A stretch of 64,000 nucleotides of DNA from an uncultured Trueperaceae bacterium. Its GTDB lineage: Bacteria; Deinococcota; Deinococci; Deinococcales; Trueperaceae. A program made the position numbers and the translations under genes. The notes beneath the pieces were generated by a model. It ran no database searches and had not been told where the DNA came from. It saw only the letters and a program-made list of their open reading frames with translations. Each line of letters begins with the position of its first letter. Position 1 is the first letter of the stretch. Positions 30,102 through 45,604 of the stretch are shown here, piece by piece. The DNA lies in contig CAWAPF010000009.1 in assembly GCA_963783895.1 (NCBI GenBank), forward strand, positions 15,128 through 79,127. The letters are read 5' to 3'.

Positions 30102-33100
30102 AACGCCGCCGGGACCACGAAGAACGTGAGCAGAGCCGAGACCAGGATGCCACCGAGCATCACCAGGGCGATGCCGTGGTTGAACTCCGATCCCGCGCCG
30201 CGGCCCAACAACAGCGGGAAACTGATGACCAGCACCGTAAGCGTCGTCATGACGATGGGGCGGAAGCGCAAGCCGCGCCGACTCGACCATCGCCTGCTTG
30301 AACGGCATCTTGCCGATACGCTCGACCACGAACTCCAGGTAGAGGATGGCGTTCTTCGCCGACAGGCCGATCAGCAGCAACATCCCCATGAGGCTGAAGA
30401 TGTCGAGCGACTGGCCCTGCACCACCAGGAACCACACCGCACCGGCCACCGCCAGCGGCACCGGCAACAGCAGATAGATGGGGTAGCGGAAGGAGTTGAA
30501 CTGCGCTCCCATCACCAGGTAGGCGAGCAGCAGTGCCAGCGCGAACACGCGCGGGCCCAGGGTACCGAGCTGCCGGGACAGCCCGGCGCGACCGAAGCTG
30601 TCGCCGGCGCCCAGCGTGACGTGGCTGTCCAGCACTCCGGCCTGGGTGAGCTGCTCGGTGATCTGGCGCTGGAACTCGATCGGGCTCGGCGCATCGGCGC
30701 TGGGCGTGATGGAGAAGCGCGCGCTGTACAGCCGGTTGCTGCGGCTGATGCTGATCGGCGCCTGCCTCTCGACGATGGCACCGAGCTGGCTGATCTGGAG
30801 GTTGGTGTGCAACGACGGCGCGTAGATGGGCAACGACAGAAGCGACTGCGCGTCGTGGAGGTAGGTGGGATCGAGCTGGACGACGATGCTGTCGCTCTCG
30901 CCACCGGTCTGCACGGCACCGGCGGTGCTGCCGCCGGTATAGGCGCGCAACGTCTGCGCGACGCTGTTGGCGGAGATGCCGGTGCCGGAGAGCAGGTCGG
31001 GATTGGGCACGAACACGGACTCCGGCGAGGACTGCTGGTTGCCGGCGTCGACGCTGAGCACGTACGGGTTCCCCGACAGCACCGCCGACACCCGTTGCAG
31101 GCGCTGGTTGAGCAGGGCGTAGTCGGTCGACAGCAGGTCGAACGACACGGCCGAGCCCTGGCCGCGGAAGCCGCCGCCCGTGCGCACGAACACCCGGGCC
31201 CCGGGGATGGCGCTCGCCGCGCTCTGCAGCGCACCCTGGTACTCGGCGCCGAGCGCGTAGATGCTGGGCCGCTGGGTAACGGGCACGAGCTGTGCTTGCA
31301 CGCTGACATCGTTGCTGCTCACGCTCGTCTGAACGGTGCGCACCGCCTTCTGCGCCAGCAGGTAGCGCTCCACGTTGCCGGCCACCTGGTTGGCGGCGGC
31401 CAGGGTGGTACCGGAGGGCAGCCGGGCGCCGATCTGCATCAGGCCGGAGTCGGTCTGCGGCACGAAATTGAGCGACACCCTGGGGCCCACCACGAACAGC
31501 GTGAGCGCCAGGAAGGCGCCCGCGCCCAGAAGGACCAAGGCGCTGAACGGGAGCATCCGTTCGAGCAACGCGGCGTAACCGTCGCGCGTCCTGCGCAGTC
31601 CCGCCTCGGTCCAACCGTGCAGGGTGGTCGTGAGCGCCTCCAGCGTCGTGAAGACCGCCCTCACCAGATAGGCCAGGACCATCAGCGCCGGCGGGTAGAG
31701 CACCAGCGCGAGCAGGGACAGCGGGGACGCCAAGCGCCACAGAGCGTAGGCGCCGGCCGCCGCCGCGAGCAACCCGAGCGGCCGGCGCCAGGCGCGCCAG
31801 CCCCAACGCACGGCGTCGCCGAAGGCGACCAGGCTGCGGCCGGCGTCGCGCCAGCCGCGGGGCGGCGCGTCGCCGATGTAGGCCATTCGGACGGTCAGGA
31901 ACAGCAGCGCCTCGAGCCAGGAGAGGAACACCGCGGCCGCCAGCCCCAGCCCGAACTGACGCAGGTAGGCGCCGGCGAAGCCGCCCATGAAGCTCACCGG
32001 GATGAGCACCGCCAGGATCGACAGCGACGCCGCCGTGACGGCGCCGAACACCTCGCTGGCACCGCGCAGCACGGCGGTGCGGCGGTCCATGCCCATCGCC
32101 CGGTAGCGCTCCACGTTCTCGGCAACCACGATGGAGTCGTCGACCACGATGCCGATCGCCACGATGAGCGCCAGCAGCGACACCTCGTTGAAGGTGAAGC
32201 CCATCAAGCCGTAGAGCACGGGCGCTGCGGAGAGCGCGATGGGGATGGCCAGGATCACCGTGAAGGCGGTGTTGAGCCGCCCCAGGAAGAGCAGCACGAT
32301 GATCGCCACCACGATGGCGGTGATCCACAGCTCGTGGAAGGTGGAGTGCACCGACGCCACGATGGGGCCGGTGGTGTCGTTGCTGATCGTGACGCTGTAG
32401 CCGGTGGGCAGCACGGTGCGCTTCAGGTAGGCGCGCACGCCGTCCGCCACGGCCACGGCGTTGCTTCCCGACGCCTGCTGCACCGACAGAAGCACCGCCG
32501 GCTTGCCGTTGACGCGGGTGTAGGAGTTCGCGATGGAAGCCTGCTGCACCCGACCGAGATCCTGCACGCGGACGTTGCGGCCGTTGTCGACCACCATGGT
32601 GGCGATGTCCTGCACGCCGGTGGGCTGGGTGCGGGTGGAGAAGGTGAGGACGTCGTTCTGGCGCGTGATCGAGCCGATCGGCTGGTTGACGATGGATGCC
32701 CCGATGGCCTGGCTGACCTGCTGCGGCGTGAGGTTGTAGTAGCTCAACTTCGCGGGGTCGAGCAGCACCTGGTAGCGGCGACTCGAGCCGCCCGAGACGT
32801 TGACGTTGGCCACGCCGGGCACCAGTTGCAGGGCGGGAACGAGGATGTTGTTGGCGTAGGCGTAGACGTCGTCCATGTTGGCGCCGTTGCCCTGCAGGCC
32901 CAGCTCCAGGATGGGCTGCGCGTTCGGATCGAAGGTCCGCACGATCGGTGAGTTGGCGTCGCTGGGGAGGCCGCGCAGGGCGGCGACCTGCGCCGCCACG
33001 GCGTTGGCGATGGCGGCCTGATTGGTGTCGGTGCCGAACTGCAGGATCACGCGGCTCGAGCCGGTGCCGCTGTTCGAGCTGATGCTGGTGATGCCGCCCA

Positions 33101-33401
33101 CGGTCGAAACCGCGGACTCCACCACCTGCGTGACCTGCTGGTCCACCACCGCCGGCGACGCACCGGGGTAGCTGGTGCTGACCATCACCACGGGGATGTT
33201 GGTGGTGGGCAGCAGATCCACGCCCAGGCGGCTGGTCTCGATCAAGCCGAAGACGACCACGCCCACGAAGATGCCGATGGACAGCACGTAGCGCGCCACC
33301 GACAACCCCACCAGCGGGTTGACGCGCGTGGCAACCACCGCGCCGGCCTCTTCGCCCTCGGCCCGCGACGCAGCGGGTTCCCGCTCGTCCTCGCCCATCA
33401 C
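30041..33401 (-). CDS. RND efflux transporter (AcrB/HAE1-like), operon 1; 1-nt frame disruption near 30269, about 75 codons before the true end
   Basis: 12+ TM RND architecture. The tracked ORF reads ...AMVESARL then junk through to 29388. The conserved end [22 protein letters not shown]...[16 protein letters not shown] is in another frame (ORF 30041-30271). Confidence 0.9.
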
Positions 33402-35080
33402 TGGCCTCCGCCGGCAGGCGGAGCCCCGCTGCCGCCGGTGGGACCGCCCGCGGGGGAACTACGACGGCCTGAAGGGGCCGTCCCGCCCGGCGCGGCACTG
33501 CCCGGTACAGCCGCGGAAGGTGCAGCCGTGCCAGGTGCCACGCCGCCGGCGGCCCCGCCACCGTTCGGGGCGCCCGCTCCCCGTGCGCTCCGTGCCGGGG
33601 GTGCGCCGCCGTCGCTCGGAGCGCCACCGCCCGACCCGCTGCCGGCCGCCGTGCTGACCTCGGAGCCGTCGAGCAGCCCGGGTGGGGGCTGATCGATGAC
33701 CGTCGCCCCCGACGGGACTCCGCTGACGGCTGCGTCGCTGCCGGCCTGCGCCAGGATGGTCAGATCGGTCTGCACCGCCTTCCCGCCCTCGATCAGGAAC
33801 ACGAAGGTATTGGTGCCGTCGTTCTGGATGGCGCTGATCGGCACGAGCGTGGCCGTGGCCAGGGTGACCCGGTAGGGCACGGTACCCACGACGCCGATGG
33901 CGAGCGAGCCGGCGGAGCCCCCCGTCGCACCGGACGCGCCCCCGGACGCGCCGCCCGTCGGCGCGTCCTGTGCAGTGGAGTTCTGTGCAGTGGAGTGCTG
34001 TGCAGCGGAGTCCTGTGCAGTGGCGTCGAAACGGGCGGTGACCGCGACCCCCTGGTTGACGGGGACGCCGGGCCGCTGGGTGACGGTGATCGGGTACTGC
34101 GCCACGCCGGTATCGAACGACAGTCGCGTGCCGGAAGGGAACGCGGCCGCGTCGGAGGGCGGCACCGACATCTGCACCTGCCGCTGCGCGCTGACGACCG
34201 TCGCCACAGCCGTGGACGGCCCCACGTACTCGCCGGGGGCCACGTTGAAGGCGGCGATCTGACCTGCGAAGGGAGCGCGGATGGTGGCGTTCGCGAGGTT
34301 CATGTCCGCCTGCTTCACGCCGTTCTGGGCCTGCGATACGGCCAGCCGCAACTGCTGCAGGCTTCCCGTCTGGGCACGCTGGTTCTGCGACGCGTTGTTC
34401 TCCGCCGAGGTGACGTTCGCCCGGGCCTGGTCGAGCTGACTCCTGGCACTGTCCACGCTGGACTTCGAAGTGCCTCCCAGCGCGTAGACCTTCTGCGCCG
34501 AGGCGTAATTCGCCTCAGCCGCCGACAGCGCGGACTTGGCTGCCTCCAACTGATGGTTGAGCTGCGCGACCGCCTGTTCGGTGTTCGTCTGCTGCGTGCT
34601 CAGATTGATCTCCGCGTTGCTGAGCGACGTCTTGGCGTTGGCGAGGGCCAGTTCCAGGTTGTCGGTGGCGAGCTGCATGATCGGCTGCTGGGCCTGGACC
34701 TCATCCCCCGCGGCCACCAACAGCGTCTTCACGGCGCCGCTGGCCTGCGCCGCCACATTGCTCTGCATCACCGCGGCCACCGTTCCGGTCGCGGTGCGGT
34801 CGGCCACCAGCGGGCCGGTCTTCACCGTGACCGCCTGTACCTCGACGGTAGCGCCGGTGCCGCCGCCCCTTGCGAACCCGCCACCCGGGGCGCCTCCCGC
34901 TCCGCCGCGCGAGAACCCGCCGGCGCCGCCGCGTGCGCCGCCGGGAAACGCTCCACCGGGTGCGGCACTGCCGGCGCCGCCGGCCCCGGCGGGGACGATC
35001 GTGCTGCCCCGGAGCGCGTAGCCGCCGAAGCCCGCGGCGACCACCAGCACCATCAGGAGCGCCCAGCCGCGGGCTCTCAC
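33398..35080 (-). CDS. RND efflux periplasmic adaptor (membrane fusion protein, HlyD family), operon 1
   Basis: N-terminal TM anchor, lipoyl/coiled-coil/beta-barrel pattern ([16 protein letters not shown]...[13 protein letters not shown]). Gly/Ala-rich low-complexity N- and C-terminal regions. ATGA overlaps on both sides. Confidence 0.85.
33966..34025. repeat. In-frame 15-bp tandem repeat x4 inside the MFP-1 gene (encodes AQxS[AT] pentapeptides)
   Basis: The units are tcctgtgcagtggag / ttctgtgcagtggag / tgctgtgcagcggag / tcctgtgcagtggcg. Confidence 0.85.
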
Positions 35081-36180
35081 GGAGCGCCTCCCGACCCCGG
35101 CGTCGCCGGCCCGACCAGCCCGGTGAGGTCCTGCCCGGCCGAGACGGAGAGCGTCACGAGCGCGGTGCGGTAGCCGTCGACGGCCTGCAGCAGGCTGTAG
35201 GCCGACGAGGCGACCGCGACCTCATCGGATTGCACCTGGAGGGCGGACACCGTGCCCGCCTCGAGGGCCGCCCGGTCCTGCTGCAGGACCTGGCGGACGT
35301 TGTCGAGGTTCTGCTGCGCGATGGCGATCCGTGCGTCGGCGTCGTGCGCCGCCTGGTAGGCGTTCGCCAGGCTGGTGGCGGCGTTCTGCCGGGCGGTGTC
35401 GAGGCTTCGGCGGGCGTTGTCCAGCGACGTCTTGGCCGTCTGGTAGGTCATGCGGGGGGTGTAGTCGTTGTCATAGAGCTTGACCTGGAGCGTGTAGAGC
35501 TCGACCGACTGCCGCGCCTGGACCACCGAGGGCAGGCGCTGCAGCAGCCCCTGCTCGAGATCGGCCAGCTTCGCCGTCACCGGCGGCAGGTCGGGCGGGG
35601 CCGCGACCGTCACCGACCCGAGATCGGTCACGCCGAGCAGCGTGGCGAGCTGCGCGCCGGCCGCGGGCACCTTGGCCTGGGCGTTGGCAAGGGTCTGCTG
35701 GGCGCTCTGCAGCGCGGTCCTGGTCTTGGAGACATCGAGCGAGGTGGCGTTTCCGTCGCCGAACTTCGCCTGGGCCACCTGCAGGTCGCGATCCGCCAGG
35801 TCCCGCTGGGCCTGCGCCACCGCCACGTTCTGCTGTGCCTCGTAGAGCGACAGGTAGGCGTTGACGACGCTCTGGAGCACCTGGAGGCGGGTTGCCTCCA
35901 GCCCGACCCGGCTCCGCGCAGCCGCTTGCTGCGCCTGCGTCTTCTGCAGCACCAGCGCCGACGGGTCGGCCTGCACCGCTTTGAGCTGGAGCTCCGCGTT
36001 GGCCAGGTTGGTCTGGGCGCTGGCCAGTTCGGCGCCCTGCCCGTAGGCGCGTGCCAGCGCCTGGGGAAGATCGAGCGTGGCGGCTTTCGCTGTCGACGAG
36101 GGCTGAAGTGGAACGGCGTTCTGCTGCGCCGACGCCGTTGCGACGAGCAGAGCGACGAGGAGGAACGTGCGGATTCTCAT
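35077..36180 (-). CDS. Short TolC-like outer membrane factor paralogue (367 aa), operon 1; the beta-hairpin segments appear to be missing
   Basis: Signal peptide MRIRTFLLVALLVATASAQQ. Two OEP-like helical repeats are present, but the inter-helix segments are only about 10-12 aa (DPSALVLQKTQ; KLYDNDYTPRMTYQ). Confidence 0.75.
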   Translation of the reverse strand: MRIRTFLLVALLVATASAQQNAVPLQPSSTAKAATLDLPQALARAYGQGAELASAQTNLANAELQLKAVQADPSALVLQKTQAQQAAARSRVGLEATRLQVLQSVVNAYLSLYEAQQNVAVAQAQRDLADRDLQVAQAKFGDGNATSLDVSKTRTALQSAQQTLANAQAKVPAAGAQLATLLGVTDLGSVTVAAPPDLPPVTAKLADLEQGLLQRLPSVVQARQSVELYTLQVKLYDNDYTPRMTYQTAKTSLDNARRSLDTARQNAATSLANAYQAAHDADARIAIAQQNLDNVRQVLQQDRAALEAGTVSALQVQSDEVAVASSAYSLLQAVDGYRTALVTLSVSAGQDLTGLVGPATPGSGGAP

Positions 36181-37673
36181 GGGAGCCCTCCCGGGGTTGC
36201 AGTGAGCTCCCCCAGCGCGTTGCGCAGTTGGAGCAGAGCCAGATAGTTCGCATTCTGATCCGACTCGACGGAACGTTGCGCCTGGTCGTGGGCGACGCGA
36301 GCGTCGCCGACATCCAGTGCGGTGGCGAGGCCTGCGGCGAGACGCGCCTGGGCCGTCGTGAGCGCCTGCTGTGCAGCGGCGAGCGACGCCCGGTCGGCGG
36401 CCAGCGACCCCTCGGCCGCCCGCCACGTCGCGTAGCGCTGACGGATGTCGAGCGCAGCGGAGCGCCGGGTGGCCGCCAGCGCCGCCTCGGCGCTGGCCAG
36501 CGCGGTGCGCGCGGTGCCCACGGCCGCGTCCGACGACGGTGCGTCCAGCGGGATGCTGACCGAGGCGCCGATGCTGAGCTGGGTGGTGACGCTCCCCGAC
36601 GTACCCGGCGCGATGGGATAGGAGACGCTGCCGCTGGCGACGCCCTTCTGGAAGTCGAGCCCGGCGTTCACGCCGAGGCCCACCTGCGTGCCGCTGGCGT
36701 CGTGGCTCGTCACCCCGAGGGCGAGGCTGGCGCTCGGGATCCAGCGCTGTGCGGCACTGACCGACAGCGAGCCCTGGGCCTGCCGGACCCGGAGTTGCGC
36801 CACCTGCACGTCGTCGCGTCGGGGCACGCCCGCCTGCACGAGGTCGGCGAGCGATCCGGCCGGACCCGTGGGCTGCGGCACCGCCGTGGTCAAGGGAGCG
36901 TCGGTGAGGGGCACGCCGAGGGTGTCGAAGAACGTGCGGCGGGCGAGGTCGAGCGTGCCGGCCGCCTGGTCCAGGGCGGCCTGGGCCCCCACCACCGCCG
37001 CCTGCGCCTGGGCCAGCCCCTGGTCGCTGAGCTGTCCCTGGGCGTGTTGCGCCTGGGCCGCGCTCAGCTTCGCCTGCGCCAGCCGGGTCGCGGCCTGCGC
37101 CGCGTCGTGGGCGGTCGCCGCCAGACGGGTCGCGAAGTACTGCTGCTCGACGGTGAGGCGCAGTCCCGCGCGGGCGCCGTCGCGGTTGAGGGCGGCCACG
37201 GCGAGCGCGACCTCGGCGTTGGCGATCGACGCGTCGACGGGTGCCCACGGCAACACCGTGGCGGAGGCCGAGACCGAGACCTTGGCGGTCGCTCCGTTGC
37301 GACCGCCCGTGCCCGCCAGGGTGTCGGTGCGGTCGTAACTGCCGCCGGCCGCCACCTGCAATCCGGCGTTGGCGCGGGCGGCGGCCAGCGCGTCCGCCGC
37401 ACTCCGGTAGTCGAGGTCGGCCTTCTGCCAGCCGGGCGCCTGGGGAAGCGCAGCGAGTGCGTCCGCGAGGGTGAAACCGGGCGCATTCGCGGGCGCATTC
37501 GCGGGCGCATTCGCGGGCGCATTCGCAGGCGCATTCGCAGGGGCCTGGGCTGGTGTCTGGGCCGGCAACTGGGCGGACGCCTGTGCGCGCACCGGCGGGC
37601 CGAGCAGGAACGGGACCAGTACGAGCGCCAGGACGAGGACCGCCCCCGACGCCCGCATGCGGTTGGGACTCAT
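36177..37673 (-). CDS. TolC-like outer membrane factor (498 aa), operon 1
   Basis: Signal peptide, a (PANA)n linker and two OEP repeats. Both repeats have long hairpin segments (GLQVAAGGSYDRT...AKVSVSASATVLPW; ASLALGVTSHDASG...QLSIGASVSIPL). Confidence 0.8.
   Translation of the reverse strand: MSPNRMRASGAVLVLALVLVPFLLGPPVRAQASAQLPAQTPAQAPANAPANAPANAPANAPANAPGFTLADALAALPQAPGWQKADLDYRSAADALAAARANAGLQVAAGGSYDRTDTLAGTGGRNGATAKVSVSASATVLPWAPVDASIANAEVALAVAALNRDGARAGLRLTVEQQYFATRLAATAHDAAQAATRLAQAKLSAAQAQHAQGQLSDQGLAQAQAAVVGAQAALDQAAGTLDLARRTFFDTLGVPLTDAPLTTAVPQPTGPAGSLADLVQAGVPRRDDVQVAQLRVRQAQGSLSVSAAQRWIPSASLALGVTSHDASGTQVGLGVNAGLDFQKGVASGSVSYPIAPGTSGSVTTQLSIGASVSIPLDAPSSDAAVGTARTALASAEAALAATRRSAALDIRQRYATWRAAEGSLAADRASLAAAQQALTTAQARLAAGLATALDVGDARVAHDQAQRSVESDQNANYLALLQLRNALGELTATPGGLP
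37479..37538. repeat. In-frame 12-bp tandem repeat x5 (gggcgcattcgc) encoding (PANA)5 in the OMF-long-1 N-terminal linker
   Basis: Four perfect units plus one variant. Confidence 0.9.
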
Positions 37674-37802
37674 GCCGCCAAGCGTTCGCCAGCGGCGTGC
37701 AGGAATGGCGCGGACCATGTGCAGCTCGTGTGCAGATGCGCCAGCGGCCCGCCGGCCCGGCCGAGACTGGGGGCGGGGCCACAACGCGGCGCCGGACAGG
37801 GC

Positions 37803-37811
37803 TGCTACAAT
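37803..37811 (+). promoter_or_regulatory. Extended -10 promoter TGcTACAAT for the marR-efflux operon 2
   Basis: Lies in the only AT-richer stretch of the 245-bp divergent spacer. Confidence 0.45.
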
Positions 37812-37813
37812 CG

Positions 37814-37852
37814 ATAGTTGGCTATGTTGAACTTTTCGGAAATCCCAACTGT
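37814..37852. promoter_or_regulatory. Inverted repeat ATAGTTGG-N23-CCAACTGT (7/8), candidate MarR operator
   Basis: Arms at 37814-37821 and 37845-37852, immediately downstream of the -10 element. Confidence 0.35.
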
Positions 37853-37918
37853 TCTCGCGGATCGCGCGCCACGCGCGCCGACGAGCGGGCCCGTGCCCCG
37901 TCCCGATCGAACGTGGTC

Positions 37919-38356
37919 ATGAAGGACTCCCGCTCGGATACGCGTGCAGGTCTACTGTCCGAGCTTCACGAGACCACCTTCCGCATGATGAGGGTGCAGC
38001 GCCAGGTCGCCGAGCGGGCGTTCTCGCCCCTCGGCCTGCGACCGGTGCAGGCCTTCGCGCTCGCGTTGCTGGGGCAGGAGGCCAGCTACCCGAAGGAGCT
38101 CGCACACCTGCTCGACGCTCCGCCCTCGGTGGTGTCGGTGCTTCTCTCCGACCTCGAGGGGCGAGGCCTGGTCAACCGAACGGTGGACCCGGCCGATCGG
38201 CGGCGGGTACGGCTCGAGCTCACGGCCGAGGGGCGCCGCACGCTCGACGCCATCAACTGCGCCTGGCTCGACGCCAACGCCAGCCGTCTCGCCCGACTCG
38301 GCACGGCCGACCTGGAAGCCCTGGTGCGCATCCAGAAGGCCCTGCTAGAGGAGTGA
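37919..38356 (+). CDS. MarR family transcriptional regulator
   Basis: LGLRPVQAFALALLGQEASYPKELAHLLDAPPSVVSVLLSDLEGRGLVNRTVDPADRRRVRLELTAEGR is a winged HTH. Confidence 0.88.
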   Translation: MKDSRSDTRAGLLSELHETTFRMMRVQRQVAERAFSPLGLRPVQAFALALLGQEASYPKELAHLLDAPPSVVSVLLSDLEGRGLVNRTVDPADRRRVRLELTAEGRRTLDAINCAWLDANASRLARLGTADLEALVRIQKALLEE

Positions 38357-38360
38357 CGTC

Positions 38361-39692
38361 ATGAAACGGATTCTCTTGCTCACCCTGCTCCTCCTCGCGC
38401 CGTCCGTGACCGCACAGTCGGGGCAGGACGCACCCACGCTGAGCACCTTCCTCGCCCCCCTCGCCGGCCAACCGTCGCTCCGGGCGGCGGGCGAGCAGGT
38501 GGCCTCGGCCGAGGCCCAGCTCCGGGCGGCCTACGACCCGGTCTCGCTGCAGGCGTCGGGGGGGTACACCGCCTTCGACACCACCTCGGTCGACATCAAC
38601 CCCGCCCAGCCCGGCGTGCAGAACCTGCCGGCCAGTGGTGGACAGATCTCGGCCGCCGTGACCGTACGCCCCTGGCTGTTCGGCGACACCGCCGACCAGG
38701 CCGACAAGAGCCGCCTCCAGCTCGACCAGGCCCGGCTCGATTACCGCGACGCCCTGACCGGCCTCCAGATCCAGGCGGTGCAAGCCGCCTACGGCGTGCA
38801 ACTCGCCCGCGAATCGCTGGCCTCGGCCCAGGAGGGCGAGAAGGTCGCCCAGGCAGCGCTCGACGCCACCCGCTTGCGGCACGACAAGGGAGCGGCCAGC
38901 GACCGCGACCTTCGCAGCGCCCAGACCGGGCTCGAGCAAGCCCGCCAATTCGTGGCCAACGCCAAGGGGGGGCTGGCGCTCGCGCAGACCACGCTCGAGA
39001 GCCTCGTCGGCCCCACTGCCGCGCCTGACGTGGCGACGTTGACGCTCGAGGTCCCCGACGGCACCGCGCTGTCGGTCCAGAAGGCGCGCCTGAGCGCGGA
39101 CCTGGCCGGCGTCTCGGTGCGCAACGCCACCCGCTCGGTCTACCCCGTCGTGCAGGCCGGCTACACCTGGAACGTCGACAGCAAGGACAGCGTCGGCGTG
39201 TCGATCGAGTCGCGCACGCTCCAACCCAAGGTCAGCTACGACTTCCAGAGCCCGGGGAGCTCGTTCCCTCAGGACCAGATCAACGGCAGCTTCCAGATCG
39301 GCGTGTCGATGACCATCTCCCCCGGTGTCATCGACGGCCTGCAGGCCACCCATGCGCAGCTCCGCGCCGCCCAGGACGGCGTCGACGCCGCGAAGCGCGG
39401 CGCTGCGGTGCAGAAGGCGTCGCTCGACAACGACCTCGCTCAGGCCAAGCGCGCGCTGAGCCTCGCGCAGCGTCAGCTCGACGATGCGCACGCCACCCTC
39501 CAGGAGGACCAGACCCGCGAGAAGCTCGGCCTGGGAACCCCCCTGACCACGCAACAGGCGGCGCTGGACCTTACCCAGCGCCAACTCGATCTACAGCAGG
39601 CCCGCCAGGACGCCCTCGCAAAGACCCTGGCGTACTACCGTTTCTACGCCCACCCCCTGGTGAGCCAGACCCCGTCGGAGGTCCAGCCGTGA
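38361..39692 (+). CDS. TolC-like outer membrane factor (443 aa), operon 2
   Basis: Signal peptide MKRILLLTLLLLAPSVTAQS. Hairpin segments GGYTAFDTTSV...ISAAVTVRPWLF and VVQAGYTWNVDSKDSVGVSIES...FQIGVSMTISP. Confidence 0.8.
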   Translation: MKRILLLTLLLLAPSVTAQSGQDAPTLSTFLAPLAGQPSLRAAGEQVASAEAQLRAAYDPVSLQASGGYTAFDTTSVDINPAQPGVQNLPASGGQISAAVTVRPWLFGDTADQADKSRLQLDQARLDYRDALTGLQIQAVQAAYGVQLARESLASAQEGEKVAQAALDATRLRHDKGAASDRDLRSAQTGLEQARQFVANAKGGLALAQTTLESLVGPTAAPDVATLTLEVPDGTALSVQKARLSADLAGVSVRNATRSVYPVVQAGYTWNVDSKDSVGVSIESRTLQPKVSYDFQSPGSSFPQDQINGSFQIGVSMTISPGVIDGLQATHAQLRAAQDGVDAAKRGAAVQKASLDNDLAQAKRALSLAQRQLDDAHATLQEDQTREKLGLGTPLTTQQAALDLTQRQLDLQQARQDALAKTLAYYRFYAHPLVSQTPSEVQP

Positions 39693-40804
39693 AACGCCTC
39701 ATCTTCGCTCTCGTCGGCGTGTTGCCGCTGCTCCTGCCCGCCGCGCACGCCTTCGGATTCCAGGACGCCCTGCAGGCCGCGCAGACGCGGCCCGACGCCG
39801 TGACCAAGCGGCTCGAGCTGCTCAACGACAGCAACGAGCTGGTGCGTGTGCAGGGCGATCCCCTCGCCCTCAAGATGGATCTCGTCAAGGCTCAGCAGGC
39901 GGTCGCACTCGATCGCGCCGAGCTCGAGAAGGCCTACGACGACGCCCTCGTGACCATCGCCAAGGCCTACACGGGTGTCCTCGAGGCGCGCGAGCAGGCG
40001 GCCCTTGCGGACAAGGGCGTCGCGGTGAGCAAGGCGTCGCTCGACATCGCCAAGATCCGCCGCACCAACGGCAGCGGCACTGACCTCGACGTGCAGGACG
40101 CCCAGGTGTCGCTCGACAACGCCACCAAGAACTCGCAGACCGCCCACAAGAGCCTGGCGATCGCCGAAGCCAATCTGGAGGGCCTGGTCGGGCAGACCCT
40201 CGACCCCGGCGCGCTCGAGCCGATCCCCGACGTCTTCCTGGTGGACGTGCCGTCGACCGACGCCGCCACCCAGGCGCTGCCGCGCACGCCCCAGCTCCTG
40301 CAGTCCCAGCAAGGCCTGGTGCTGGCCCGGCTCGGAGTCCAGATGCTCGACCCGAGCTACGCATCGGCGTCGCAGATCGAGTCCGCCAAGACGCAGTTGC
40401 AGACCACCGAGAAGCTCGTCGCCGAAGCGCAACGCGGCCTCCAGATCCAGGCCAAGAACCTGGTTGTGCAGGCCCAGAGCGCAGCGGAATCCTTCCGCAT
40501 CGAGCAGGACAGTCTGGCCAACGCCAACCAGCGGCTCGGGTTCGCCTCGGACCGGCTGAACGCCGGCCTGATCCCCAAGATCCAATTCCAGAAGGCGGAG
40601 CTCGACCAGCTCCAGGCCAAACTCTCTGCGCTGCAGGCGCGCGACGGCTACGTGGTGGCGCTGCTCCAGCTCCAGGCTGGCACCCAGCTCCAGCTGCAGG
40701 GCCCGAGCGTTTACGACTTCGCTGCCACCGTGGGACCCCTGCCCGGCGACGCCGGCGTAGCACCCAGCGGAGGCGCAGGGAACGGTTCCAGCAATGGGCA
40801 GTAG
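39689..40804 (+). CDS. Short TolC-like outer membrane factor paralogue (371 aa), operon 2; the beta-hairpin segments appear to be missing
   Basis: Signal peptide MKRLIFALVGVLPLLLPAAHA. Helical OEP-like repeats have only short connectors (GDPLALKMDL; QMLDPSYASASQ). A Gly-rich tail follows. Confidence 0.75.
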   Translation: MKRLIFALVGVLPLLLPAAHAFGFQDALQAAQTRPDAVTKRLELLNDSNELVRVQGDPLALKMDLVKAQQAVALDRAELEKAYDDALVTIAKAYTGVLEAREQAALADKGVAVSKASLDIAKIRRTNGSGTDLDVQDAQVSLDNATKNSQTAHKSLAIAEANLEGLVGQTLDPGALEPIPDVFLVDVPSTDAATQALPRTPQLLQSQQGLVLARLGVQMLDPSYASASQIESAKTQLQTTEKLVAEAQRGLQIQAKNLVVQAQSAAESFRIEQDSLANANQRLGFASDRLNAGLIPKIQFQKAELDQLQAKLSALQARDGYVVALLQLQAGTQLQLQGPSVYDFAATVGPLPGDAGVAPSGGAGNGSSNGQ

Positions 40805-42089
40805 GGCGGCCCGTCGGACGCTCACGGCCCTGCTGCTGACGCTGGTGCTGGTCCCGCTGACGGCGTGCGGTGGCCGCAAGGCGAGCGACCAGAGCGGCAC
40901 CCAGGCAGCCGCCGGATCGACCGCCACGCAGGCGGCCGCCGGATCGGCGGGGGCGGCCAGCGACGTACGCAAGGTACGCGTCGTCCAGCCCCGTCAGGGT
41001 CAGCTCACAGCGCAGCGCAGCGCCTCGGTGACCATCGACCCGGCCCGCTCGTCGATGGTCGCGGCCGGCACCTCCGGGCAGGTGGCGAGCGTGCTCCACC
41101 GTGAAGGCGCCACCGTGAAGGCGGGCGAGACGGTCGTGCAGCTCGACACCACCTCGTTGAAGCTCCAGGTCCAGAACGCCGAGACGGCGCTCGAGAGCGC
41201 GAAGGTCAACCTCGCCAAGGCCGAGAAGTCGGCCAAGGACGGCCTGGCGCAGGCCCAGGCCGCGCTCGAGGCCGCCCAGCAGAACCTGTCGCTGGCCCAG
41301 AGGCAGGTCGACAACGGCCAGAACCTCTACGCAGCCGGTGGCATCTCCGCCACCGACCTGCAGAGCCTGCAGGCGCAGCTCGCCCAGGCGCACTCGAGTT
41401 ACCAGCAGGCCAGGGACGCGGTCGATCAGGCGCAGCGCGCCGAGACCGAGGACCTCCAGCTCCAGCGGCTGCAGGTGCAGCAGGCCCAGACGCAGCTCGA
41501 CCAGGCGCGGCACACCCTGGCCGAGGCCACCATCACCGCGCCGTTCGACGGTCAGATCGCCGACATGCGGGTCTCCGAAGGTGAGTTCGTGGCGACCGGC
41601 AGCCCGGTGTTCCGGCTCGTCTCCGTTCTGACCCAGCTCGCCAAGTTCGATGTACCCCCACAAGACGCCCAGCAGCTCTCGGACAAGGGCCTGGTGTACG
41701 TGAGTTACGGCGGCCTCGACTTCGCCGCCCAGATCGTGCGCAGCACCACCGTGCCGGGATCGTCGCGGCAGGTGGAGCTGACCGCCCGCATCTACGCGTC
41801 CAAGCACGCCATCCCCACCGGCGCGACCGGCCAGGTCAACTACCAGGTGACGCTGGCGTCCGGTCTCTTGCTCCCGTCCGACGCACTCAAGACCGACAGC
41901 GGCGAGAGCACGGTGCTGCTGGTCAAGGACGGCGTCGCGACACAGACGAAGGTGCAGCTCCTGGCCGAGGTCGGGGGCACCGCCGCCATCCAGGGCCTGC
42001 CGGCCGGCGCTCAGGTCGTCTACCCGGTCCCCAGTGACCTCCTCGCGGGCTCCAAGGTCCAGATCGTCGGGGGCGCCACGTCGCCATGA
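40794..42089 (+). CDS. RND efflux periplasmic adaptor (MFP) lipoprotein, operon 2
   Basis: Lipobox LVPLTAC. HlyD-type pattern VKAGETVVQLD, a coiled-coil and ITAPFDGQIADMRVSEGEFV. Confidence 0.85.
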   Translation: MGSRAARRTLTALLLTLVLVPLTACGGRKASDQSGTQAAAGSTATQAAAGSAGAASDVRKVRVVQPRQGQLTAQRSASVTIDPARSSMVAAGTSGQVASVLHREGATVKAGETVVQLDTTSLKLQVQNAETALESAKVNLAKAEKSAKDGLAQAQAALEAAQQNLSLAQRQVDNGQNLYAAGGISATDLQSLQAQLAQAHSSYQQARDAVDQAQRAETEDLQLQRLQVQQAQTQLDQARHTLAEATITAPFDGQIADMRVSEGEFVATGSPVFRLVSVLTQLAKFDVPPQDAQQLSDKGLVYVSYGGLDFAAQIVRSTTVPGSSRQVELTARIYASKHAIPTGATGQVNYQVTLASGLLLPSDALKTDSGESTVLLVKDGVATQTKVQLLAEVGGTAAIQGLPAGAQVVYPVPSDLLAGSKVQIVGGATSP

Positions 42090-45000
42090 GACGCCTGGTC
42101 CAGTTCTTCGTCAACAACTACGTCCTGACCATCAGCGTCTTCGGGGCACTGGTGCTGTTCGGCGCCGTGAGCACCCTGAGCCGCGGCATCGAGCTGTTCC
42201 CGCCCATCACCGTGCCGGTCATCGCCGTCACCACCAGCTACAGCGGGGCGGGACCGGAGGAGGTGTCGCGCCAGGTGGCGCAGCCCGAGGAGGGCGCCCT
42301 CACCACGCTCCCCGGCATCAGTTCCGTCAGCTCGGTCAGCTACGAGGGCTACGGCATCGTGATCGCCCAGTTCAACGCCAATGCCGACATCAACCAGGCC
42401 GCCATCGATGTGAGCCAGCGTATCTCCCAGATCGGCAACCAGCTCCCCGACGGCGCCGGCAACCCGACGGTCCAGAAGTTCAACCCCAACGACCAGCCGA
42501 TCCTCAGCGTGGCGGTGTCAGCGCCCGGTCAGGACCTGATGGCCGTGCAGAACTACGCCGAGAACACGCTGCAACCCGCGATCGAGAGGGTCAACGGGGT
42601 GGCGGACGTCACCGTGGTGGGGCCGGCCAAGGAGCAGGTGCAGGTCCTGCTCGACCCCAACGCGCTCGCCAACTTCGGCTTGACCCCCCAGCAGGTGGCG
42701 AACGCCATCCAGGCGTCGGCGCTCGACGTGCCGGCCGGCAGCCTGGACTTCGCCAACAGCCGCGTTCTGCTCACGGCGCGCGCCACCCCGACCGATGTCG
42801 CGCAGGTGGCGTCGATCCCGGTCGATCCCTCGCGCGGCCTCAGCGTCTCCGATGTCGCCACGGTGCGCGACACCACCGCCAAGCCCACGTCCTACGCGCG
42901 TCTCAACGGCGAGCCGGTGGTGCTGCTGCAGGTGCGCAAACTGTCCGACAGCAACGCCGTGGCGACCGCCAACGACCTGCGTGCGGCACTGAAGAAGCTC
43001 GACCTGCCCTCCGGCTACAGCACGCAGATCGTGGGCGATACCACCACCTACGTGGCGTCCAGCGTCTACGACACCCTCCAGGAGATGCTGATCGCAGCCC
43101 TCGCCGTCTCCCTGGTCGTGCTGATGTTCGTCGGCCGGCTGGGCTCGGTGTTCGCGGTGGTGCTCGCCATCCCGGTGGCGCTGTCGGGCGCCCTGGTGAT
43201 GTTCTGGCTGTTCAACTACAGCTTCAACATCATCACGCTCCTCGCCCTCACCGTTGCCATCGGCCTGGTGGTCGACGACGCCATCGTGGTGGCCGAGAAC
43301 ATCGACCGCTACCGGGAGATGGGGTACGCACGCCACGAGGCGGTGCTCAAGGGCGCCAGCGAGGTCTCCACGGCGGTCCTGGCGGCGACCATGTCGCTGC
43401 TGGCGGTGTTCCTGCCGATCTCGTTCCTGCCCGGCATCATCGGCCAGTTCTTCGCCCAGTTCGGCATCACCCTGGCGGCCACCGTGGCCTTCAGCTACTT
43501 GGAGGCGATGTTCTTCCTGACGGTCCGCCTGGCGCTGTCGCCGGATCCTTTCCCGCCGTCGTGGCGCGACCTCCCGGCTGCGCTGCGAGGGACGCGCAAC
43601 GATCTGCAGTGGGGCCTGCGCTTCTACCGCAGCGTCTGGTTCTGGCTGATCGCGCTGGCCGCGGGCGCCGGACTCGTGCGGGCCCTTGGCGTGCGCTACC
43701 TTGCGCTGCTGGTGCTGCTGCCGTTGCTGCTGGTGCTGCTCCGCATGCTCCTGCGCGTCGTGCTCGCGGTGCTCGGGGCGCTCTCGCTCAACCTCTTCCA
43801 GGTGGGAGACTTCCTGATCACGCGGACCCGCGAAGCCTACGTGGCGGCGCTATCGCGCCTGCTCCCGCGATCCTGGATCGTCCTCGTCACCGCCGCGCTG
43901 CTGTTCGCCAGCCTGTTCTGGGTGTTCCCGCGCATCGGCTTCAACTTCCAGCCGCCGTCGGACACGGGCCAGCTCGTCGTCGATGCCCGCCTACCGGTGG
44001 GGACCAGCCTGGCGCGCACCAACCAGGTGGCCACACAGATCGAGGCCGACCTGCTGGCCGACCCCATGGTGACGACCGTGCAGACGACGGTCGGCTCCGG
44101 CACCCAGGTCGGCGGAGCGCTGCCCGAGGACGCTACCCTGACCGTGCAGCTCGTCGACAAGGGCCAGCGCAAGCGCACCACCAGCGAGCTGGCGGTGGCC
44201 GTCCAGGATCGCTTGCGCACGATGTTCGCCGACCACCCGGAGATCCGCATCAGTGTCGGCAGCTCCGACCCCAGCAACGCCCCCACCAACGCCGGCTACG
44301 ACCTGACGCTGGCATCGACCAACCTGGACGCGCTGCGTCAGCACTCCGACCAGGCGGTGGTCGTGCTCCAGAGCGATCCGCAGCTCCGTAACGTCCGCTC
44401 CGATGTGTCCTCCAGTTCCACCGAGCGCGTTTTCGTGGCGGACGCCGCGCAACTGGCGGGCACCGGGCTGACACGCGCGCAGGTCTTCCAGGCACTGCGG
44501 ACCTACAACGTCGGCACCCATGCCGCCACCATGCGCAAGGCGGGCGTGGAGATCCCCATCCAGGTGATGGCCGATCCCCGCAACCTCGTGAACGAGCAGA
44601 CCATCCTCAGCCTGCCGTTGTACGCGCCCGCCCTGCAGACCACCGTCACGCTGGGCGACCTCGGTCACTTCGAGACCCGCCTCGCCCCCGCGGTGATCCG
44701 CCGCACCAACCAGTCCTACAGCTCCGACGTGACCGCCGACCTGGCGCCGGGCGTGACCCAGTCCGAGGCGAAGCAGCAGGCACACCAGCGGTTGGTGGCG
44801 GCCGGGGTGCTCGACGCGCAGGTGGTGCAGACCACCAGCGGCAACCTCGACCTGCTAGGCGACCTGCTCAAGTACGGTCCGATCGCGTTCGCACTGGCGC
44901 TGTTGCTGAACTACCTGGCCATCGGCAGCCAGTTCAACTCCTTCAAGTACCCGCTCTACCTGTTGCTGACGGTCCCCTTGGCGCTGGTCGGAGCGATCTG

Positions 45001-45604
45001 GCTGTTCTACATCACCGGCAACTCGCTCGACGTCATCAGCATCCTGGGGGTGGTGATGCTGGTGGGTCTGGTCACCAAGAACGCCATCCTGCTCCTGGAC
45101 GTGACCATGCGGCGGGCCTCCGAAGGGGACGACCTCTACGACGCCCTGGTGGAGGCCGGGCGCGTGCGCTTCCGGCCCATCGTGATGACCACCCTCACCG
45201 TCGTGGTCATCAGCATCCCGCTCATGGTCGGCGCCTCGCAGGGAGCGGAGTTCCGCTTTCCGCTGGGTCTGGTCATCGTGGGGGGCGTGCTCAGCTCGGC
45301 GCTGCTGACCTTCTTCGTCGTGCCTGCCGCCTTCTACCAGTTCGAGCGCAAGCGCTACGAGCGACTGGGAGCGGCGGCCGTCCCGCGTGGCGGCGCGGCC
45401 CCGGACGCCTCGCCCAGCGGCGGCGGCGCGACCGGCCCGGTGGAGGGTGGGCACGAGCGCTCCCCCCGGAGCGGTGGACCCGGCCCCTCGCAGCGACGTC
45501 CGAGCGGCGCGAGCCCGAACACCGGTAGCCCGAACACCGCCACCGAACGTGGCCGCGCACGCACCGAGCCCGGGAACCCCGACGAGGCGACCGGGGGCCG
45601 CTAG
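42086..45604 (+). CDS. RND efflux transporter (AcrB/HAE1-like), operon 2, with a Gly/Pro/Ser-rich C-terminal tail
   Basis: 1172 aa intact paralogue of RND-1. Conserved motifs are [34 protein letters not shown] and [16 protein letters not shown]. Confidence 0.92.
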   Translation: MRRLVQFFVNNYVLTISVFGALVLFGAVSTLSRGIELFPPITVPVIAVTTSYSGAGPEEVSRQVAQPEEGALTTLPGISSVSSVSYEGYGIVIAQFNANADINQAAIDVSQRISQIGNQLPDGAGNPTVQKFNPNDQPILSVAVSAPGQDLMAVQNYAENTLQPAIERVNGVADVTVVGPAKEQVQVLLDPNALANFGLTPQQVANAIQASALDVPAGSLDFANSRVLLTARATPTDVAQVASIPVDPSRGLSVSDVATVRDTTAKPTSYARLNGEPVVLLQVRKLSDSNAVATANDLRAALKKLDLPSGYSTQIVGDTTTYVASSVYDTLQEMLIAALAVSLVVLMFVGRLGSVFAVVLAIPVALSGALVMFWLFNYSFNIITLLALTVAIGLVVDDAIVVAENIDRYREMGYARHEAVLKGASEVSTAVLAATMSLLAVFLPISFLPGIIGQFFAQFGITLAATVAFSYLEAMFFLTVRLALSPDPFPPSWRDLPAALRGTRNDLQWGLRFYRSVWFWLIALAAGAGLVRALGVRYLALLVLLPLLLVLLRMLLRVVLAVLGALSLNLFQVGDFLITRTREAYVAALSRLLPRSWIVLVTAALLFASLFWVFPRIGFNFQPPSDTGQLVVDARLPVGTSLARTNQVATQIEADLLADPMVTTVQTTVGSGTQVGGALPEDATLTVQLVDKGQRKRTTSELAVAVQDRLRTMFADHPEIRISVGSSDPSNAPTNAGYDLTLASTNLDALRQHSDQAVVVLQSDPQLRNVRSDVSSSSTERVFVADAAQLAGTGLTRAQVFQALRTYNVGTHAATMRKAGVEIPIQVMADPRNLVNEQTILSLPLYAPALQTTVTLGDLGHFETRLAPAVIRRTNQSYSSDVTADLAPGVTQSEAKQQAHQRLVAAGVLDAQVVQTTSGNLDLLGDLLKYGPIAFALALLLNYLAIGSQFNSFKYPLYLLLTVPLALVGAIWLFYITGNSLDVISILGVVMLVGLVTKNAILLLDVTMRRASEGDDLYDALVEAGRVRFRPIVMTTLTVVVISIPLMVGASQGAEFRFPLGLVIVGGVLSSALLTFFVVPAAFYQFERKRYERLGAAAVPRGGAAPDASPSGGGATGPVEGGHERSPRSGGPGPSQRRPSGASPNTGSPNTATERGRARTEPGNPDEATGGR

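Follow-up and report, generated by a model that had tools for sequence, protein, structure and literature searches.

Barrel-less TolC paralogues encoded in two divergent efflux operons of an uncultured Trueperaceae bacterium, candidate fourth components of trans-envelope pumps

In the textbook view, the machines of trans-envelope efflux and type I secretion consist of three parts: a transporter, an adaptor, and a TolC-type outer-membrane duct. This architecture measures approximately 30 nm and fits proteobacterial periplasms; in Deinococcota and Dictyoglomota, the membranes lie much further apart. Here, we describe two divergent efflux operons in a stretch of 64,000 nucleotides from an uncultured Trueperaceae bacterium (the whole of which is called the window below). 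Each operon encodes, besides a canonical long outer membrane factor (OMF; L1 and L2), a short TolC paralogue (S1 and S2) that lacks both beta-hairpins of the outer-membrane barrel. From this short paralogue we infer a four-component pump. A conserved TolC paralogue that is encoded in the operon and has a tunnel but no membrane barrel is a tangible candidate for the length that pumps in wide-periplasm phyla would need, and it makes the question of how pumps span such periplasms directly testable.

The closest described systems are the OMFs of the TolC/OprM/CusC type (PF02321; TIGR01844, TIGR01845). The short proteins are homologous to these and share their two-repeat helical architecture, including the long helices H3/H7, the shorter helices H4/H8, the equatorial segment, and the R-x3-G tips, and their genes too share operons with those of an adaptor and a transporter. 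However, they have no beta-hairpins and so no outer-membrane barrel, and they are encoded besides a canonical OMF rather than instead of one. Adaptor hexamer tubes (MacA, AcrA, EmrA, HlyD) invite a second comparison, in that the short protein would likewise be a soluble, all-helical, periplasmic extension of the duct below TolC and would dock tip-to-tip through six hairpin tips (PMC3391258). An adaptor, however, carries a two-helix hairpin on a lipoyl/beta-barrel scaffold, whereas the short protein is a TolC-type protomer with four long helices and an equatorial segment, presumably trimeric, with neither a membrane anchor nor the RLS motif in its top loops. Machines and tethers lengthened for a wide periplasm are known from the same phylum in PilQ and the SlpA coiled-coil spacer of Thermus and Deinococcus (PMC4463427, PMC9388160). 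These proteins are unrelated to the short family, and their length comes from domains or a coiled coil within one polypeptide, whereas the short protein would be a separate paralogous subunit. Finally, CusCFBA, YbjP-TolC, and Bucl8-FusCDE are tripartite pumps with a fourth operon-encoded or associated component (PMC8277102, PMC13082787). The additional component is a small metallochaperone in the case of CusF and a lipoprotein lying on the lateral surface of TolC in that of YbjP, while Bucl8 is itself an OMF, extended outside the cell by a collagen-like region; none of the three is a barrel-less TolC paralogue in the duct. No description of a barrel-less TolC was found in a search that covered the open-access full-text literature. 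Such proteins go unmentioned in the accessible part of a 2021 Chemical Reviews article on tripartite pumps (PMC8277102), as they do in a 2022 survey of the TolC-like family and in a 2026 paper on YbjP (PMC13082787). This barrel-less, periplasm-only family is apparently undescribed, in agreement with a preliminary description of the window, whose author was aware of no efflux system with such a component.

The four OMF-like genes, and the connectors that take the place of the hairpins in the short proteins, are as follows.

36177-37673, minus strand: L1, canonical long OMF, 498 amino acids, matching the Pfam OEP profile over positions 1-187
35077-36180, minus strand: S1, barrel-less TolC paralogue, 367 amino acids, matching OEP profile positions 85-187 only
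35953-35967, minus strand: S1 connector 1, DPSAL (residues 72-76), in place of beta-hairpin 1
35452-35475, minus strand: S1 connector 2, YDNDYTPR (residues 236-243), in place of beta-hairpin 2
38361-39692, plus strand: L2, canonical long OMF, 443 amino acids, matching the full OEP profile, with strands in both repeats of its AlphaFold2 model
39689-40804, plus strand: S2, barrel-less TolC paralogue, 371 amino acids, all-alpha in its AlphaFold2 model and matched by Foldseek to OMFs only
39857-39871, plus strand: S2 connector 1, DPLAL (residues 57-61), with D57, P58, and L61 invariant in family alignments
40346-40369, plus strand: S2 connector 2, LDPSYASA (residues 220-227), with D221, P222, and Y224 nearly invariant

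All four open reading frames, and the peptides that the preliminary description had quoted from them, were found at these coordinates. Its central claim, that the short paralogues lack both hairpins and the long ones have them, is borne out by profile coverage, alignment, and structure prediction. PF02321 covers both repeats of L1 and L2 in full, whereas in S1 and S2 it matches two stretches each, of profile positions ~85-187 only; the scores of 66 bits for S1 and 78 bits for S2, against a cut-off of 22, place both proteins in the TolC/OMF superfamily. In MAFFT alignments, the hairpin 1 region (the equivalent of S2 residues 45-75) spans 31 residues in S1 and S2 versus 77 in L2 and 71 in L1, and the hairpin 2 region (the equivalent of residues 205-240) spans 36 residues versus 97 and 89, respectively, so that each repeat of the short proteins is approximately 40-60 residues shorter. 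The alignment of S1 with S2 is free of gaps at both connectors.

Searching PDB chains with the S1 and S2 sequences yielded local helical matches only, at marginal E-values (0.001-0.1), which left the hairpin question to structure prediction. Single-chain AlphaFold2 models were obtained for S2, from a 52-sequence alignment, and for L2, and S1 was compared by its alignment to S2. The S2 model (pLDDT, or predicted local distance difference test, 93.1; predicted template modelling score, pTM, 0.86) contains no beta-strand at all. Its first repeat is made up of helix 35-56, the loop 57-61 (DPLAL), and helices 62-126 and 132-167, and its second of helix 201-218, the loop 219-226, and helices 227-291 and 297-332, with the equatorial segment between helices 132-167 and 201-218; the C-terminal tail of S2 is disordered. 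In the L2 model (pLDDT 86.9), two strands (61-71 and 92-102) fall in repeat 1 and four (263-271, 276-283, 290-297, and 309-316) in repeat 2. The helices are nearly equal in length, at 65/65/36/36 residues in the S2 model versus 67/68/36/36 in that of L2, and the preliminary description was right that the helical repeats are retained in the short paralogues. A separate point concerns L2 itself, in which the four strand segments and a short helix within residues 263-316 (window positions ~39147-39308) suggest an extended extracellular hairpin or loop relative to E. coli TolC.

A Foldseek search of the PDB with the S2 model returned 44 significant matches at a probability of 1.00, every one of them a barrel-bearing OMF (TolC, OprM, OprN, OprJ-type, CusC, SilC, CmeC, MtrE, VceC, and ST50), and no barrel-less protein was seen among these PDB matches. 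The best match was TolC (9tg4_A, E 2e-9). TM-scores were 0.5-0.69, normalised to the query, and the alignments ran 30-40 columns longer than S2.

Signal peptides were also retained, as the preliminary description had proposed. Both short proteins begin with a Sec signal, cleaved between ATASA and QQ in S1 and between PAAHA and FG in S2, and the mature proteins contain no cysteine, no lipobox, and no hydrophobic or transmembrane segment. Because a signal peptide is present and a lipobox cysteine and any later hydrophobic segment are absent, S1 and S2 are predicted from sequence to be periplasmic and soluble. An OMF has two beta-hairpins per protomer, which make up a 12-stranded barrel, and the S2 model has none. 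The NCBIfam models TIGR01844 (S2 67.8 and S1 74.8 bits; cut-off 225) and TIGR01845 (S2 23.8 and S1 45.6 bits; cut-off 210) are not reached either, a weak test on its own in both cases, as L1 and L2 also score below the cut-offs. Neither HlyD or biotin-lipoyl domain matches nor a membrane anchor were found in S1 and S2. The short proteins are therefore neither OMFs, as judged by the barrel, nor adaptors, and S1 and S2 are confirmed as exported, soluble, all-helical members of the TolC superfamily without both outer-membrane hairpins. Judging from the model, the protomer appears to keep the whole alpha-barrel part of TolC, approximately 100 Å long because a 65-residue helix rises by 1.5 Å per residue, together with the equatorial part. 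The family shows that a TolC alpha-barrel is able to stand alone as a soluble module, a point of relevance to how the OMF fold evolved and is assembled.

The short proteins are not peculiar to this window. A word-indexed search with S2 returned 55 clusters, all of 343-436 amino acids, and an exhaustive HMMER search with an 18-sequence profile over 1.84 billion representatives returned 132 matches at E<1e-30; nearly all of the best 150 HMMER matches measure 330-380 amino acids and align end to end. Both connector spans of S2 are kept in 127 of the 128 full-length representatives (clusters at 50% identity), a constancy well outside what chance would give. Across 130 family members, the information content reaches 1.98 and 1.81 bits in the two top loops and 1.91 and 2.13 bits at the two lower tips, versus approximately 1.1 bits in the helices. 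Both ends of the predicted helical bundle are under the strongest constraint, and the most conserved positions are D57, P58, Y94, G128, Y224, and G293. Since the family is large and invariant in length, its loci are linked to efflux genes, and its conservation peaks at the ends of the tube, the evidence supports a functional family and not a product of decay, as the preliminary description had argued from their presence in both operons. Some members are longer (P0114, P0133, P0072, P0077, P0152, P0142, P0039), and no Rosetta-stone fusion was seen among them; their extra residues are free of domains and probably reflect miscalled starts. Neither Pfam nor NCBIfam holds a dedicated model for the short family, and databases label its members "TolC family protein" or "outer membrane protein." This amounts to a systematic annotation error: the name "TolC family outer membrane proteins" has been given to hundreds of proteins that cannot belong to the outer membrane.

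The window has a G+C content of approximately 70%, and open reading frame calls together with Pfam and NCBIfam matches place the two divergent operons within positions 30247-45604. The gene order is L1, S1, MFP1, RND1 on the minus strand and MarR regulator, L2, S2, MFP2, RND2 on the plus strand, the remaining genes being as follows.

30247-33401, minus strand: RND1, RND inner-membrane transporter (Pfam ACR_tran, E 4e-165; NCBIfam)
33398-35080, minus strand: MFP1, periplasmic adaptor, 560 amino acids (Pfam HlyD_3 and HlyD_D23; NCBIfam RND_mfp TIGR01730 above its cut-off)
37919-38356, plus strand: MarR-family regulator (Pfam MarR_2, HTH_27, and MarR; NCBIfam MarR-type matches)
40794-42089, plus strand: MFP2, lipoprotein periplasmic adaptor, 431 amino acids, lipobox LTAC (Pfam; TIGR01730 above its cut-off)
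42086-45604, plus strand: RND2, RND inner-membrane transporter, 1172 amino acids (Pfam ACR_tran, E 2e-201; NCBIfam)

The junctions between the OMF, short-protein, adaptor, and transporter genes all overlap in both operons, by 4 bp (ATGA or GTGA) or 11 bp. The MFP1 start overlaps the S1 stop by 4 bp (GTGA), the GTGA start of S2 overlaps the L2 stop, with GGAGG 7 nt 5' of S2, and Shine-Dalgarno sequences precede both short genes. The G+C content at third codon positions (GC3) is 0.89-0.93 across the operon genes and 0.90-0.92 in the short genes. Overlapping junctions, Shine-Dalgarno sites, and uniform GC3 indicate that these genes are real and probably translationally coupled, and such junctions and ribosome-binding sites are expected of stoichiometric subunits. 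The MarR gene, which ends 4 nt 5' of the L2 start codon, probably opens the plus-strand operon; it is probably co-transcribed with the efflux genes and regulates them. The top matches of RND1 are multidrug (HAE1-like) models.

In L1, a signal peptide and a (PANA)n linker precede two complete OEP repeats, each with its beta-hairpin, and the final strand aligns with strand S5 of TolC in PDB chains. The linker, a low-complexity AQxPAQ/(PANA)5 Pro-Ala stretch between the signal peptide and the first helix (window positions ~37380-37530, minus strand), is not carried by L2. MFP1 is anchored in the membrane at its N-terminus and combines Gly-rich linkers with a long alpha-hairpin. Its disordered content is unusually high for an adaptor and comprises a Gly-rich linker of ~60 residues after the anchor, an internal low-complexity stretch rich in Gly, Ser, Ala, and Thr that includes GGASGGASG, and a C-terminal tail of ~90 residues rich in Gly, Pro, and Ala. 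In MFP2, the hairpin region measures ~130 residues, has LYAAGGISATDL at its tip, and is matched by EmrA/HlyD-type models of NCBIfam. The hairpin tips of MFP1, MFP2, and the adaptors at loci L001-L054 bear an OMF-like motif, L[YF]xxGGxSxxDL, and the Pfam OEP model weakly matches the hairpins of MFP1 and MFP2; adaptor tips and OMF tips are thus alike in sequence in these lineages.

Beyond the window, 53 Deinococcota loci were collected with search patterns that included RxxxDPLAL, which biases the set to close relatives; they come from Trueperaceae, other Deinococci, a Thermaceae metagenome-assembled genome (MAG), and Deinococcus lacus. In all 53, the adaptor gene lies directly downstream of the short gene, and in most the long OMF gene lies directly upstream, so that the usual order is long OMF, short protein, adaptor, and transporter. 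S2 is 98% identical to its homologue on a contig from an uncultured Trueperaceae MAG (L001), and both operons are present at L001-L005, L007, and L009, where S1-type genes go with L1/MFP1 and S2-type genes with L2/MFP2. At some loci, MacB-type ABC transporters replace the RND transporter. Among the species in culture, the family is present in Deinococcus misasensis (for example WP_034336688.1), D. cellulosilyticus (WP_146891570.1), and D. hohokamensis. In Dictyoglomus (L054), the cluster consists of an ABC-ATPase, an OEP protein with full repeats (446 amino acids), a short OEP protein of the DNDYTP type (342 amino acids), an adaptor, and a MacB permease, and S1 belongs to this same DNDYTP subtype. 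An Atribacteria MAG (L057) and a Firmicutes-labelled MAG (L056) each have short and long OEP proteins within one MacB-type cluster. Linkage in operons to adaptor and transporter genes, of either RND or MacB type, marks the short proteins as candidate efflux-pump components. Because short and full-length OEP proteins share the Dictyoglomus, Atribacteria, and Firmicutes-labelled clusters, the module is independent of transporter type, and the short protein never replaces the long one in these MacB clusters. The long/short pairing noted in the preliminary description recurs in Deinococcota, Dictyoglomus, and these two MAGs. The family is widespread in at least two deep-branching phyla.

In a crude neighbour-joining analysis, 43 of 45 short proteins fall in one split, with weak bootstrap values and 11% of the distances saturated. 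The main short group lies nearest to the Deinococcota long family, and the Atribacteria/Firmicutes pair lies outside it. This suggests a single origin of the short family, and the Atribacteria/Firmicutes-labelled pair may represent an independent second loss of the barrel. The two proteins of this pair, P0187 and P0198 (L056, GCA_012839815.1; L057, GCA_026390275.1), have first connectors of 33 residues and no D-P motif, and they adjoin Negativicutes-type OMFs in the same crude tree.

The observations above cover how the short proteins fold, their export signals, their conservation as a family, their linkage in operons, and the spread of the family across phyla; the mechanism that follows is a proposal. 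The short protein would assemble, like TolC, into a homotrimer, that is, a 12-helix tube open at both ends, and this tube would stand in line within its cognate pump, between the adaptor hexamer and the canonical long OMF. Its lower tips, of the normal TolC type (R-x3-G...T-x-LDV), would dock with the adaptor hexamer at the six hairpin tips of the latter, and its upper crown of six short, highly conserved loops (three of DPLAL and three of DPSYAS or DNDYTP) would abut the six helix-turn-helix tips of the long OMF. Tip-to-tip, cogwheel docking of six adaptor hairpins on six TolC tips is an established mode (PMC3391258), and this six-on-six docking could be reused at a second level of the duct, because the top of the short trimer would consist of six helix-loop-helix tips at the same radius as the open TolC aperture. 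Such a pump would have four tiers, namely transporter, adaptor, short duct, and OMF, and with approximately 10 nm more length than a tripartite one it would match the very wide periplasms and thick walls found in Deinococcota and Dictyoglomota.

We regard such an in-line trimer, lengthening the conduit between adaptor hexamer and canonical OMF, as having about an even chance of being correct. The lower tips of the short proteins bear the generic OMF tip signature, which is also present in the long proteins and echoed in the adaptor tips, and the hairpin regions of the adaptors in both operons are long, at ~130 residues, and are matched by EmrA/HlyD-like models. Of the two roles that the preliminary description had offered, mixed trimers and a stacked extension of the tunnel, the second is favoured only by the geometric argument and by the wide periplasms of these phyla. 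In D. radiodurans the periplasm is 121 +/- 4 nm wide and the wall begins 30 nm below the outer membrane (PMC9388160), and in T. thermophilus it is "extraordinarily wide," with an elongated PilQ secretin to cross it (PMC4463427).

Several points weigh against this arrangement. Trimerisation, the partners, the in-line position, the orientation, and the purpose of length compensation are all steps that we infer. Segment-level mirror-tree partial Spearman correlations between the ends of the short protein and the tips of the long OMF or the adaptor gave no signal, staying close to zero (-0.10 to +0.17) across 52 triples of long, short, and adaptor proteins, and no compensatory pattern between the short-protein loops and the partner tips was obvious by eye. 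The adaptor motif RxxxLxxxxxxS is absent from the top loops (R-x3-DPLAL; LDPSYAS or DNDYTP); the adaptor tips at these loci keep L-x6-S. The long paralogues likewise conserve the D-P motif with which the loops start (YDPVSL, YPVVQ). The motif is a legacy of canonical OMFs, so that some of the conservation seen in the loops may serve structure and not mark an interface. A few loci, such as L049, have a short protein, an adaptor, and MacB without an adjacent long OMF, and the equal helix lengths in the models would make lateral co-assembly of short and long proteins geometrically possible. Moreover, one extra tier of 10 nm is too short for the 121 nm periplasm of D. radiodurans. This gap may be met if pumps work only where the membranes approach each other, if several short tiers are stacked, or if the short trimer forms a chimney or cap that stops short of the long OMF. 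The second of these possibilities can be generalised, in that barrel-less trimers could be modular segments whose crown docks on any TolC-type lower tip and which bear a tip of that type themselves, giving head-to-tail stacks (L-S-MFP or L-S-S-...-MFP) and conduits of variable length, which we hold tentatively and consider a little less probable than its being wrong. If true, modular segments of this kind would add to the pump components of Deinococcota and Dictyoglomota a fourth structural class that has so far gone unrecognised, one that may have arisen again in Atribacterota- and Bacillota-labelled lineages.

The strongest alternative, although an unlikely one in our estimate, is that the short trimer docks on the adaptor-transporter complex without touching the long OMF. 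It could then deliver substrate to the outer periplasm beyond the thick wall, seal and stabilise idle pumps, or compete with the long OMF as a regulator or assembly factor. This would account for an adaptor gene that invariably adjoins the short gene even where the long OMF gene is occasionally missing from the locus, and for lower tips that bear the standard OMF motif recognised by adaptors. The outer membrane can also lie far from the inner one in phyla that form rotund bodies (PMC10665443), and the D. radiodurans periplasm is too wide even for a two-tier duct (PMC9388160). However, a full-length OMF is encoded in the same cluster in four phylum-level lineages, and stoichiometric coupling with it fits a joint complex; the upper loops, as conserved as the lower tips, suggest a partner at the upper end too.

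Less probable still, indeed improbable, is a mixed trimer in which short and long protomers stand side by side in one TolC-like assembly (two long and one short, or the reverse), changing the size or gating of the barrel and not the length of the duct. The two genes are adjacent and translationally coupled, protomers with the same helix lengths could pack laterally, and the short proteins are nearer to the co-resident long family than to other OMFs (mean distance 2.60 versus 3.12 in the neighbour-joining analysis). Yet the 12-helix alpha-barrel is matched to a 12-stranded beta-barrel, whereas one or two long protomers would supply only 4-8 strands (6-12 with the extra strands of L2) at the same radius, for which there is no precedent among solved OMFs. 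Similarity between short and long proteins is weak as well (38-48 bits, versus 76-84 bits between S1 and S2), some loci carry a short protein without an adjacent long one, and strong conservation of the top loops is hard to explain if these loops merely dangle under the membrane. That the short genes are remnants of duplicated long OMF genes, or annotation artefacts, is suggested by their shorter length alone and is rejected as having almost no chance of being true, given GC3 as in their neighbours, intact signal peptides, the number of family matches with conserved length and motifs, synteny kept across phyla, and the confident S2 model. What probability these explanations leave belongs to something that we have not considered.

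Apart from their putative place in pumps, the short proteins could serve as a natural scaffold for engineered helical protein tubes. Two further observations were made among the sequences collected. In Deinococcus lacus NBRC 112440 (L053, 5522-6797), the gene upstream of the short protein consists of two overlapping open reading frames, of which OEP matches the second alone; either the long OMF is frameshifted here or the sequencing introduced an error. A metagenomic protein of 1246 amino acids (P0170) was considered as a fusion of a long and a short protein, and this was rejected, as it is a triple canonical OMF. Its six OEP repeats form three tandem, closely similar TolC-like units of ~405 amino acids each, so that it resembles a covalently linked, single-chain OMF trimer.

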